From NCBI RefSeq assembly GCF_013167455.1, contig NZ_CP038328.1: a stretch of 64,000 nt of DNA, one strand, 5' to 3'. Positions within the stretch are counted from its first letter, which is position 1; each line of letters starts with the position of its first letter. This DNA is from Escherichia coli O157:H7 (GTDB lineage Bacteria > Pseudomonadota > Gammaproteobacteria > Enterobacterales > Enterobacteriaceae). The position numbers were made by a program, and so were the translations under genes. Of the stretch, positions 31,925 to 37,067 are shown one piece after another. Under the pieces are notes generated by a model, which did no database searches, had not been told where the DNA came from, and saw nothing but the letters and a program-made list of their open reading frames with translations.

Positions 31925-32593
31925 ATGATTCGCTTTGAACATGTCAGCAAGGCTTATCTCGGTGGGAGACAGGCGCTGCAGGGCGTTACGTTCCATATGC
32001 AGCCGGGTGAGATGGCGTTTCTGACCGGTCATTCCGGCGCAGGGAAAAGTACCCTCCTGAAGCTGATCTGTGGGATTGAGCGGCCCAGCGCCGGGAAAAT
32101 CTGGTTTAGCGGCCATGACATCACGCGTCTGAAAAACCGTGAAGTTCCGTTTCTGCGCCGCCAGATTGGCATGATTTTCCAGGATCACCATCTACTGATG
32201 GACCGTACTGTCTACGATAACGTGGCGATCCCGCTGATTATCGCCGGTGCCAGCGGTGACGATATTCGCCGCCGGGTGTCGGCGGCACTGGATAAAGTCG
32301 GGCTACTGGACAAAGCGAAGAACTTCCCTATTCAGCTTTCTGGCGGTGAACAACAGCGTGTTGGCATTGCCCGCGCGGTGGTGAACAAGCCCGCGGTACT
32401 GCTGGCGGACGAACCGACTGGTAACCTGGACGACGCGTTGTCGGAAGGGATTCTACGTCTGTTTGAAGAGTTTAACCGCGTAGGGGTAACCGTATTGATG
32501 GCAACGCACGACATCAACCTGATTTCACGGCGTTCCTATCGCATGCTCACCCTGAGCGATGGTCACTTGCATGGAGGCGTGGGCCATGAATAA
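31925..32593 (+). CDS. ftsE: Cell-division ABC ATPase FtsE
   Basis: 222 aa; Walker [10 protein letters not shown] and signature LSGGEQQRV. Confidence 0.95.
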
Positions 32594-33644
32594 GCGCGAT
32601 GCAATCAATCATATTCGGCAGTTTGGCGGGCGTCTTGATCGCTTCCGTAAATCGGTCGGCGGCTCAGGCGACGGCGGTCGTAACGCACCGAAACGCGCGA
32701 AATCCTCGCCAAAACCGGTAAATCGCAAAACCAACGTTTTCAACGAACAGGTGCGCTATGCCTTCCACGGCGCATTGCAGGATCTGAAAAGCAAACCGTT
32801 CGCCACATTTTTAACGGTGATGGTTATCGCCATCTCCCTGACGCTGCCCAGCGTCTGTTATATGGTGTACAAAAACGTTAACCAGGCGGCGACGCAGTAT
32901 TATCCGTCACCGCAAATCACTGTTTATCTGCAAAAAACGCTGGACGATGACGCCGCTGCGGGCGTGGTGGCACAGTTGCAGGCCGAGCAAGGCGTAGAGA
33001 AAGTGAACTATCTTTCTCGTGAAGACGCACTGGGCGAGTTCCGTAACTGGTCTGGTTTTGGTGGCGCGCTGGATATGCTGGAAGAAAACCCGCTTCCGGC
33101 AGTGGCGGTGGTGATCCCGAAGCTCGACTTTCAGGGGACGGAGTCTCTGAATACGCTGCGTGATCGTATCACGCAGATTAACGGCATTGACGAAGTGCGG
33201 ATGGATGACAGCTGGTTTGCCCGTCTGGCGGCGTTGACCGGGCTGGTCGGGCGCGTTTCGGCGATGATCGGCGTGTTGATGGTGGCGGCAGTGTTCCTCG
33301 TCATCGGTAACAGTGTACGCCTGAGTATCTTTGCTCGTCGTGACTCCATTAACGTGCAGAAACTGATTGGTGCAACGGATGGTTTCATCCTGCGCCCGTT
33401 CCTGTACGGTGGCGCATTGCTGGGGTTTTCTGGCGCATTGTTGTCATTAATTTTATCAGAAATTCTGGTACTGCGATTGTCATCGGCGGTTGCGGAAGTG
33501 GCACAGGTTTTCGGAACGAAGTTTGATATCAATGGTTTATCGTTCGATGAATGCCTGCTGTTGCTGCTGGTATGCTCGATGATTGGCTGGGTGGCAGCGT
33601 GGCTTGCCACGGTACAACATTTACGCCACTTTACGCCTGAATAA
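32586..33644 (+). CDS. ftsX: Cell-division ABC permease-like protein FtsX
   Basis: Start at [12 protein letters not shown] gives 352 aa, overlapping the ftsE stop. Confidence 0.9.
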
Positions 33645-33660
33645 TAAAAGCGTGTTATAC

Positions 33661-33695
33661 TCTTTCCCTGCAATGGGTTCCGTAGCAGGGAAAGA
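33661..33695 (+). terminator. Strong hairpin after ftsX (11-bp stem TCTTTCCCTGC/GCAGGGAAAGA)
   Basis: Perfect 11-bp inverted repeat 17 nt after the ftsX stop with no U-run; terminator or processing/regulatory hairpin. Confidence 0.4.
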
Positions 33696-33768
33696 GACCC
33701 CGTTGTCTCTTCCCGGTATTTCATCTCTATGTCACATTTTGTGCGTAATTTATTCACAAGCCTGCATT

Positions 33769-33795
33769 GAACTTGTGGATAAAATCACGGTCTGA
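33769..33795 (+). promoter_or_regulatory. rpoH sigma-E-dependent promoter (P3) with overlapping DnaA box
   Basis: GAACTT (33769..33774), 16-nt spacer, TCTGA (33791..33795); TGTGGATAA (33774..33782) is the reverse complement of the DnaA box TTATCCACA. Confidence 0.7.
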
Positions 33796-33888
33796 TAAAA
33801 CAGTGAATGATAACCTCGTTGCTCTTAAGCTCTGGCACAGTTGTTGCTACCACTGAAGCGCCAGAAGATATCGATTGAGAGGATTTGA

Positions 33889-34743
33889 ATGACTGACAAA
33901 ATGCAAAGTTTAGCTTTAGCCCCAGTTGGCAACCTGGATTCCTACATCCGGGCAGCTAACGCGTGGCCGATGTTGTCGGCTGACGAGGAGCGGGCGCTGG
34001 CTGAAAAGCTGCATTACCATGGCGATCTGGAAGCAGCTAAAACGCTGATCCTGTCTCACCTGCGGTTTGTTGTTCATATTGCTCGTAATTATGCGGGCTA
34101 TGGCCTGCCACAGGCGGATTTGATTCAGGAAGGTAACATCGGCCTGATGAAAGCAGTGCGCCGTTTTAACCCGGAAGTGGGTGTGCGCCTGGTCTCCTTC
34201 GCCGTCCACTGGATCAAAGCAGAGATCCACGAATACGTTCTGCGTAACTGGCGTATCGTCAAAGTTGCGACCACCAAAGCGCAGCGCAAACTGTTCTTCA
34301 ACCTGCGTAAAACCAAGCAGCGTCTGGGCTGGTTTAACCAGGATGAAGTCGAAATGGTGGCCCGTGAACTGGGCGTAACCAGCAAAGACGTACGTGAGAT
34401 GGAATCACGTATGGCGGCACAGGACATGACCTTTGACCTGTCTTCCGACGACGATTCCGACAGCCAACCGATGGCACCGGTGCTCTATCTGCAGGATAAA
34501 TCATCTAACTTTGCCGACGGCATTGAAGATGATAACTGGGAAGAGCAGGCTGCAAACCGTCTGACCGACGCGATGCAGGGTCTGGACGAACGCAGCCAGG
34601 ACATCATCCGTGCGCGCTGGCTGGACGAAGACAACAAGTCCACGTTGCAGGAACTGGCTGACCGTTACGGTGTTTCCGCTGAGCGTGTGCGCCAGCTGGA
34701 AAAGAACGCGATGAAAAAACTGCGCGCTGCTATAGAAGCGTAA
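33889..34743 (+). CDS. rpoH: Heat-shock sigma factor RpoH (sigma-32)
   Basis: 284 aa with sigma-70-family regions 2 to 4. Confidence 0.96.
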
Positions 34744-34764
34744 TTTCCGCTATTAAGCAGAGAA

Positions 34765-34796
34765 CCCTGGATGCGAGTCCGGGGTTTTTGTTTTTT
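34765..34796 (+). terminator. rpoH intrinsic terminator
   Basis: Stem CCCTGGA/TCCGGGG with a 6-nt loop, followed by TTTTTGTTTTTT. Confidence 0.75.
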
Positions 34797-35013
34797 GGGC
34801 CTCTACAATAATCAATTTCCCCTCCGGCAAAACGCCAATCCCCACGCAGATTGTTAATAAACTGTCAAAATAGCTATTCCAATATCATAAAAATCGGGTA
34901 TGTTTTAGCAGAGTATGCTGCTAAAGCACGGGTAGTCATGCATAAAACGAAATAAAGTGCTGAACAACAACATCACAACACACGTAATAACCAGAAGAAT
35001 GGGGATTCTCAGG

Positions 35014-36266: not shown

Positions 36267-36533
36267 ATGTCTGCTGTTAAAAAGCAGCGTATCGATCTGC
36301 GTTTAACTGACGATGACAAAAGTATGATTGAGGAAGCGGCAGCGATATCTAATCAGTCCGTCAGCCAATTTATGTTGAACAGCGCTTCGCAGCGGGCTGC
36401 GGAAGTGATTGAACAGCATCGGCGGGTGATCCTCAATGAGGAATCCTGGACGCGGGTGATGGATGCGCTGAGTAATCCACCGTCACCAGGTGAAAAGCTA
36501 AAACGTGCGGCAAAACGTCTTCAGGGAATGTAA
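36267..36533 (+). CDS. DUF1778-family antitoxin (TacA/AtaR/ItaR-like) of a GNAT toxin-antitoxin module
   Basis: 88 aa, 6 nt upstream of a GNAT toxin gene; small charged protein typical of DUF1778 antitoxins. Confidence 0.8.
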   Translation: MSAVKKQRIDLRLTDDDKSMIEEAAAISNQSVSQFMLNSASQRAAEVIEQHRRVILNEESWTRVMDALSNPPSPGEKLKRAAKRLQGM

Positions 36534-36539
36534 TAATTT

Positions 36540-37067
36540 ATGGATGATCTGACGATAGAGATTCTGACCGATGATGCAGATTATGATCTACAGCGATTCG
36601 ACTGCGGCGAGGAAGCGTTAAATCTCTTTCTGACGACACATCTCGTTCGTCAACATCGCAACAAAATTCTGCGAGCGTATATCCTTTGTCGCAACACTCC
36701 AGAACGTCAGGTGCTGGGATATTACACATTATGCGGCAGTTGTTTTGAACGAGCCGCATTGCCCTCGAAATCGAAACAGAAAAAAATTCCCTACAAAAAT
36801 ATTCCCAGCGTTACTCTTGGGCGTCTGGCAATTGATCGTTCATTACAGGGGCAGGGATGGGGAGCAACACTGGTTGCTCATGCCATGAAAGTCGTCTGGT
36901 CAGCCTCTTTAGCGGTAGGTATTCACGGTCTTTTTGTCGAGGCGCTGAATGAAAAAGCCCATACGTTTTATAAATCGCTGGGCTTTATCCCTTTAGTCGG
37001 GGAAAACGAAAATGCGTTATTTTTCCCAACCAAATCCATTGAACTGCTTTTTACACAGAGCGATTAA
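36540..37067 (+). CDS. GNAT-fold acetyltransferase toxin (TacT/AtaT/ItaT-family tRNA-acetylating toxin)
   Basis: 175 aa; motifs FDCGEEALNLFL and LGRLAIDRSLQGQGWGATL are typical of aminoacyl-tRNA-acetylating GNAT toxins. Confidence 0.8.
   Translation: MDDLTIEILTDDADYDLQRFDCGEEALNLFLTTHLVRQHRNKILRAYILCRNTPERQVLGYYTLCGSCFERAALPSKSKQKKIPYKNIPSVTLGRLAIDRSLQGQGWGATLVAHAMKVVWSASLAVGIHGLFVEALNEKAHTFYKSLGFIPLVGENENALFFPTKSIELLFTQSD

Follow-up and report, generated by a model that had tools for sequence, protein, structure and literature searches.

A conserved hairpin lacking a U-tract and a sigma-E promoter overlapped by a DnaA box in the ftsX-rpoH spacer of Escherichia coli O157:H7

Layout of the ftsX-rpoH spacer

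The interval 33661-33888 falls within the 244-nt intergenic region between ftsX and rpoH and is a multi-promoter control region of rpoH, the gene for sigma-32 (Table 1). All positions refer to the window, that is, the whole 64,000-nt stretch of DNA that was analysed, in which open reading frames and annotation give the gene order ftsY, ftsE, ftsX, rpoH, livJ. The stretch is 100% identical to E. coli O157:H7, where ftsX and rpoH are annotated, and was found in 5425 of 5426 complete E. coli genomes. Published data for E. coli K-12 were placed on the window by subtracting the window position from 3634672, which yields the version 3 coordinate and was confirmed with a published sequence tag. Over the spacer, O157 differs from K-12 MG1655 at the single base 33762, which is C in the former and T in the latter (there giving GCTTGCATTG); this base lies between DnaA box 2 and the P3 -35 element, in a stretch that is also variable across genera. 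For comparison, the spacer of 13 further Enterobacteriaceae genera was collected by means of FtsX and RpoH protein matches, and hence independently of any motif. Extra loci, retrieved from metagenome DNA with a pattern containing P3 and the DnaA box and thereby uninformative on P3 conservation, were used for the hairpin only, for which they supplied additional variants.

Table 1. Sequence features of the ftsX-rpoH spacer and its borders, in window coordinates
Feature	Position	Strand	Basis
ftsX stop codon TAA	33642..33644	+	ORF 32559..33644; ftsX annotation in 5425 E. coli genomes and K-12
P1 extended -10 TGTTATACT (hexamer TATACT 33656-61, TG 33653-54)	33653..33661	+	PMC2760140 supplementary file 3
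Hairpin H1, 5' arm CTCTTTCCCTGC	33660..33671	+	fold, repeat search; shares 2 nt with the end of the P1 -10 and includes the P1 +1
P1 transcription start, -221 from the ATG, within 1 nt	33668	+	PMC2760140; 7 nt past the -10 hexamer
H1, apical part AATGGGTTCCGTA (inner stem ATGG/CCGT, loop GTT)	33672..33684	+	fold
H1, 3' arm GCAGGGAAAGAG	33685..33696	+	fold, conservation
Downstream pyrimidine copy GTCTCTTCCC (candidate H2, 33689-98 with 33705-14)	33705..33714	+	minimum-energy fold from 33668
Conserved block TGTCACATTTTGTGCGTAAT	33730..33749	+	near-invariant in 14 genera; directly upstream of DnaA box 2
DnaA box 2 TTATTCACA, fits TTATNCACA	33750..33758	+	sequence
rpoH P3 -35 GAACTT	33769..33774	+	motif match, published consensus, conservation
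DnaA box 1, perfect TTATCCACA	33774..33782	-	motif scan; invariant in 14 genera
rpoH P3 -10 TCTGA	33791..33795	+	motif match, published consensus
Sigma-54 type element TGGCAC-N5-TTGCT (rpoH P6)	33833..33848	+	sequence; between P3 and the rpoH start
Shine-Dalgarno GAGAGGA (33877-83) and rpoH ATG (33889-91)	33877..33891	+	sequence, ORFs; invariant in 14 genera

Three of these features had escaped the first-pass annotation, namely the firing of P1 within the 5' arm of a hairpin, the second DnaA box, and the sigma-54 element. The start of P1 comes from 454-sequenced 5' ends, among which an rpoH start at -221 is listed together with a sigma-70 -10 given as 'gcgtGTTATACTcttt' or 'GTTATACT', carries the flag 'Known', and agrees with the known promoter within 1 nt (PMC2760140, supplement). 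P1 thereby shows what is expected of a sigma-70 extended -10 promoter, a TGnTATAAT-like element followed at 7 nt by a mapped start, and the form TGnTATA(C/A)T is conserved in 14/14 genera. The sigma-54 element, in turn, is conserved as CTGGC(A/C)...TTGC in the 14 genera and coincides with a peak of RpoN holoenzyme binding found by gSELEX in the rpoH-ftsX spacer (K-12 version 2 coordinate 3598870, window ~33825). Furthermore, a CRP/CytR cassette has been documented upstream of rpoH (PMC3454398), and the conserved block TGTCACATTTTGTGCGTAAT is probably part of it.

Several minor observations concern the remainder of the spacer and its surroundings. Term-seq reports very abundant RNA 3' ends at 33868 and 33870 (K-12 3600804 and 3600802), 19-21 nt upstream of the rpoH ATG; they fall 3-5 nt past a weak stem, UCUGGC...GCCAGA (33831-65). 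This stem, which surrounds the sigma-54 element, was rejected as the cause of the 33868 end, its fold being no better than that of shuffles (z = -1.4). The P1 leader also holds a 40-codon ORF, MGSVAGKETPLSL..., at 33673-33795, which begins 5 nt after the P1 start and whose TGA stop belongs to the P3 -10 TCTGA. As a conserved upstream ORF this frame was rejected, as Citrobacter, E. kobei, Atlantibacter and Kluyvera lack its ATG and many indels occur in the region; by this comparison it probably does not encode a conserved small protein. Downstream of livJ, at 36267-37067, two adjoining plus-strand genes encode products of 88 and 175 amino acids, of which the former has a weak ribbon-helix-helix antitoxin-like match and the latter weak GNAT acetyltransferase matches, all below curated cut-offs; by these matches the two look like a GNAT/RHH toxin-antitoxin pair.

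The sigma-E promoter P3 and its DnaA boxes

The first-pass annotation had read GAACTT-16 nt-TCTGA as a sigma-E promoter, and the evidence bears this out. The combination has a single match in the 64-kb window, counting both strands (0.01 expected from shuffles), this match lies upstream of rpoH, and it fits the sigma-E model built from 28 mapped starts, with a -35 of GGAACTTTT (GGAACTT) and a -10 of (T/C)GGTCAAAA (TCAAA-type; PMC1312014). In its context the -35 element reads tGAACTT (33768-74) and agrees with GGAACTT at 6/7 positions, the spacer from GAACTT to TCTGA measures 16 nt, and the -10 element stands in cGGTCTGA (33788-95), corresponding to a TCAAA or TCTGA preceded by GG or CGG. rpoH P3 itself serves as a standard sigma-E reporter and as an in vitro control promoter. 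Judged by motif and established knowledge, on which its coordinates rest, GAACTT-16-TCTGA is rpoH P3, the textbook sigma-E promoter; it shares with the archetypal promoter of sigma-E (RpoE, the ECF factor sigma-24) the gene, the position, the -35, the spacer and the -10, and so represents the promoter itself and not an analogue. There is no detectable difference from rpoH P3 of E. coli K-12, O157 being identical over the promoter. Its start is predicted at ~33800-33803 from the usual distance between a sigma-E -10 and +1. RNA polymerase carrying sigma-E would read P3 and so couple envelope stress and extreme heat to the synthesis of sigma-32.

The perfect DnaA box that had been placed on the opposite strand, across the -35 and spacer region, was recovered as well: TTATCCACA occupies 33774-82 of the minus strand and covers the last base of the P3 -35 plus the spacer's first 8 nt. 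No other perfect DnaA box occurs in the window, but with an expectation of 0.26, and with at least one in 23 of 100 shuffles, box 1 is not significant alone, and its weight comes from position and conservation. Box 2 lies 15 bp upstream of box 1 in inverted orientation, and across genera it changes mainly at the N of TTATNCACA (T, G or A).

The first-pass annotation had called this overlap consistent with known DnaA repression, and DnaA was reported in 1989 to bind the promoter region of rpoH and to repress the gene (Wang and Kaguni, as summarised in a 2021 review, PMC8203912). DnaA bound to boxes 1 and 2 would cover the -35 and the spacer and could thus repress the proximal promoters by occlusion. 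A comparable arrangement exists at DnaA-repressed promoters, that is, rpoH and the own promoter of dnaA, where likewise two TTATNCACA 9-mers overlap or flank core promoter elements; the same logic of repression by occupancy is predicted here from the boxes. Both P3 and the DnaA boxes are already known and have been textbook matter since the late 1980s, and their confirmation adds only that the call made from sequence alone was right.

What the comparison of genomes contributes is the different age of the two layers. The block GAACTTGTGGATAA..TCAC.GTCTGA is essentially invariant across the 14 Enterobacteriaceae genera. Among 80 diverse proteobacterial loci, a strict GAACTT-N15-17-TCNNA within 300 nt upstream of rpoH occurs in 21, against a chance rate that we estimate at ~0.003 per locus, whereas a DnaA-like box overlapping the sigma-E motif is found only in the two Enterobacteriaceae of that sample. 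The sequence of the P3 spacer is invariant in the 14 genera, and the spacers of rpoH sigma-E promoters in other taxa are unrelated to it; the conservation of box 1 thus exceeds the needs of the promoter. Thus, the wiring from sigma-E to sigma-32, which spans Gamma- and Betaproteobacteria and is far more widespread, is old, and the DnaA overlay on P3 appears to be an addition at the level of the family, confined in our sample to the Enterobacteriaceae; this is a small gain over what was known.

A conserved hairpin across the start of P1

Sixteen nucleotides past the ftsX stop codon begins a hairpin, H1, which the first-pass annotation had described as a perfect stem of 11 bp at 33661..33695. 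The hairpin is real, but its outer stem comprises 12 perfect pairs and not 11, joining 33660-33671 with 33685-33696 and including 7 G-C pairs. An inner stem of 4 bp (33673-76 with 33680-83) extends it to overall arms of 17 nt that are 88% complementary and enclose a 3-nt loop. Folded within 76 nt of sequence, H1 reaches -26.7 kcal/mol (z = -3.95), a value matched by 2 of 200 shuffles; on the minus strand the inverted repeat gives a fold of equal quality (-30.1 kcal/mol over 96 nt). H1 occurs as a single copy per genome and is not a repeated element. Since the 64-kb window holds 19 inverted repeats of similar size, the significance of H1 comes from its conservation and not from the repeat itself.

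As had been noted from the sequence, H1 lacks a U-run: on the plus strand the next bases are ACCCCGUUGU, and on the minus strand the tail reads UAUAACACGCUUUU / UAUAACACGC, a poor U-tract. A terminator scan flagged H1 on neither strand, and Rfam covariance models run over 33300-34900 on both strands gave no match at E <= 1. In E. coli Term-seq from three growth conditions, no 3' end is called at H1 on either strand (K-12 36009xx-36010xx), in a listing that holds only ~1000 dominant ends per condition and at a low expression of ftsYEX. A simple intrinsic terminator was rejected on these grounds, namely the lack of a U-tract on both strands, the negative scan and the lack of a called end.

The position of H1 relative to P1 constrains which RNA can contain it. 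Because the +1 of P1 lies inside the 5' arm, P1 mRNA keeps only 4 of the 12 outer pairs, and the complete H1 is possible only in read-through RNA from ftsYEX or in antisense RNA. That a structurally conserved hairpin straddles the start of P1, the main housekeeping promoter, and cannot be a feature of P1 mRNA is the second small gain of this analysis.

H1 is present directly after the -10 element in 14/14 Enterobacteriaceae genera and in 38 distinct variants, the order being TGnTATA(C/A)T in every genus, followed immediately by CTTTCCCTGC, a loop and GCAGGGAAAG. The loops are hypervariable among genera in both sequence and length (12-23 nt), and most of them still form a small inner stem. Of the alignment cells, 89.9% are paired in H1 versus 41-61% with slid partners, and 5 of the 12 pairs (11 cells) have changed on both sides; the observed values were reached by 0-1 of 500 shuffles. 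RNAalifold likewise returned a 10-bp consensus stem with two-sided changes in 4/10 pairs. Among the compensatory variants, Pluralibacter and Pseudescherichia carry CTCTCCCTGC/GCAGGGAGAG, and Superficieibacter carries CTTCCCCTGC/GCAGGGGAAG. At the covarying positions 33664/33692 and 33665/33691, the members in the 5' arm lie upstream of the P1 start, which argues that selection acts on something other than P1 mRNA. Within E. coli, four variant genomes were examined, and their differences all lie outside the 12-bp stem. As judged from the alignment, the structure of H1 is under selection, with few independent covariation events. The arms are more conserved than pairing alone needs, and part of this may reflect constraint on the P1 discriminator and the initial transcribed region and not on RNA. 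Wobbles and mismatches, 5 U.G versus 5 C.A cells, are uninformative on the strand that folds.

Possible roles of the hairpin

Taking the interval as a whole, we put a probability of roughly 0.7 on the reading in which P3 lies in a DnaA-repressed control region and H1 is a U-less structure at the 3' end of ftsYEX that insulates rpoH. The assignments of promoters and DnaA boxes are shown or established, and the function of the hairpin is what we infer; our confidence that H1 is such a 3'-end or insulator structure for ftsYEX read-through RNA, possibly in both directions, is moderate to low. H1 would be the 3'-end structure of the ftsYEX transcript. Without a U-tract it would alone make a weak terminator, and it may instead block 3' exonucleases once Rho has terminated transcription in the pyrimidine-rich stretch beyond, thereby separating the cell-division operon from rpoH; in the opposite direction, H1 may also end antisense transcripts. 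The earlier suggestion of a processing or regulatory structure rather than a simple terminator is consistent with these data, as H1 has no U-run, no end called by Term-seq and a structure under selection.

The stretch 33695-33769 has more C than G (GC skew -0.22 to -0.25) and is rich in T. A published region of bicyclomycin-sensitive Rho termination lies at window 33802, K-12 3600870 (score 1.92, p = 1e-11; 800-nt windows), a signal that could equally be explained by induction of the rpoH promoters by bicyclomycin. With intrinsic terminators H1 shares a stable, G+C-containing stem-loop a few nt past a stop codon, but it differs from them in the lack of a U-tract, in its outer loop of 13 nt, in the lack of a mapped 3' end among those found, and in its overlap with the -10 and +1 of a promoter. 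Protective 3' stem-loops, including REP-type stabilisers, are closer, being likewise U-less stable hairpins just past the last gene of an operon; an untranslated stretch with C>G and a reported Rho-sensitive region lie behind H1. H1 differs in that it is not a repeated element, and the trimmed 3' end that would be expected is not among the Term-seq calls. By analogy, the known elements nearest to H1 are the protective 3' stem-loops of Rho-terminated mRNAs. Such stem-loops reportedly stabilise mRNAs of this kind by blocking 3' exonucleases, a finding ascribed to Dar and Sorek in 2018.

Other accounts of H1 place its function on the opposite strand, in the DNA, or nowhere. H1 could serve mainly as the terminator, or 3'-end anchor, of long antisense RNAs that originate near panZ (yhhK) and cross livJ and rpoH in antisense, as ArpH does in S. 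Typhi, and so keep them out of ftsX. ArpH is an antisense RNA of 3508 nt whose 3' end was placed by RACE on the complementary strand, 238 nt upstream of the ATG of rpoH; in the Salmonella locus (L082) this end maps to the minus strand, 10 nt past the base of the hairpin. The equally good fold of the minus strand agrees with such a role, as does a minus-strand tail that in all genera has a stretch of 4-7 U some 10 nt past the stem. However, this stretch does not adjoin the stem, the authors of ArpH described no terminator and based their RACE on few clones, E. coli Term-seq calls no 3' end on the minus strand at this place, the wobble pairs have no strand asymmetry, and the antisense role would be compatible with one on the plus strand too. 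We consider a mainly antisense function unlikely, if still worth entertaining. A palindrome that acts as DNA, either as the operator of P1 for a dimeric regulator or as a cruciform that makes P1 sensitive to supercoiling, seems very improbable. Its centre at about +10 of P1 and the conservation of the arm sequences beyond the need of pairing would fit such an element, but the arms are spaced by 12-23 nt among genera, which is incompatible with a fixed dimer site and led us to reject the operator of a dimeric regulator, the loops are long for cruciform extrusion, and the compensatory changes preserve pairing and not a fixed sequence. Finally, a chance inverted repeat without function might be suspected from the 19 similar-sized repeats in the window, the lack of an Rfam match and the lack of a 3' end called at H1. 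This account is close to refuted by conservation, as H1 keeps the same position in 14 genera while its loop and 3' flank diverge freely, with indels, and as compensatory changes are present.

A further account lets the transcription start decide how the RNA folds. Read-through RNA would form H1 and leave the pyrimidine-rich stretch single-stranded for Rho, whereas in P1 mRNA the 3' arm would pair with the downstream pyrimidine copy (H2), thereby altering Rho access, attenuation or stability, so that only one class of transcripts would reach rpoH; P1 transcripts might in this way evade Rho or undergo a different attenuation. In every genus a second pyrimidine stretch resembling the 5' arm does follow the 3' arm. 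The start of P1 falls inside the 5' arm, read-through RNA folds H1 in 14/14 genera, a Rho-sensitive region is nearby, and in 12/14 genera RNA begun at the predicted P1 +1 has a minimum-energy fold in which the 3' arm is joined to a downstream CTTTCC-like copy, the exceptions being Citrobacter and Atlantibacter. Against dinucleotide shuffles, the H2 duplex has a median z of -1.74 and reaches p < 0.05 in 47% of 61 variants (8/14 genera), p-values that are not independent, as the sequences are related. Moreover, an A-to-U change in the 3' arm of Kluyvera breaks an H1 pair yet matches the downstream CAUCUU. On the other side, the H2 complementarity of E. coli is not significant (z = -1.15, p = 0.12), and H2 is absent by the duplex test in some Citrobacter-like variants and in Kluyvera; purine-rich against pyrimidine-rich composition makes such pairing cheap, no clean double compensatory change was found for H2, and Term-seq calls no 3' end around 33715-33730. 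Given that p-value and the lack of a called end, an attenuator role of H2 is not supported in E. coli. The H2 pairing could be a start-site switch or a side effect of composition, and we regard the switch as doubtful. As in leader RNAs with terminator and antiterminator, one purine arm has two possible pyrimidine partners, but the choice would be set by the transcription start and not by a ligand, ribosome or protein, and in E. coli itself the support for it is weak. If H1 did sort read-through from promoter-initiated RNA, it would be a neat example of the insulation of a promoter that lies within the 3' end of an upstream operon.

The arrangement of promoter and hairpin also recurs outside the Enterobacteriaceae. 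In an Acerihabitans locus (L004), an extended -10, TGTTATAAT, ~207 nt upstream of rpoH is directly adjoined by a hairpin, which is unrelated in sequence and weaker (-10.3 kcal/mol). The layout of promoter plus hairpin may thus be older than the sequence that forms it.
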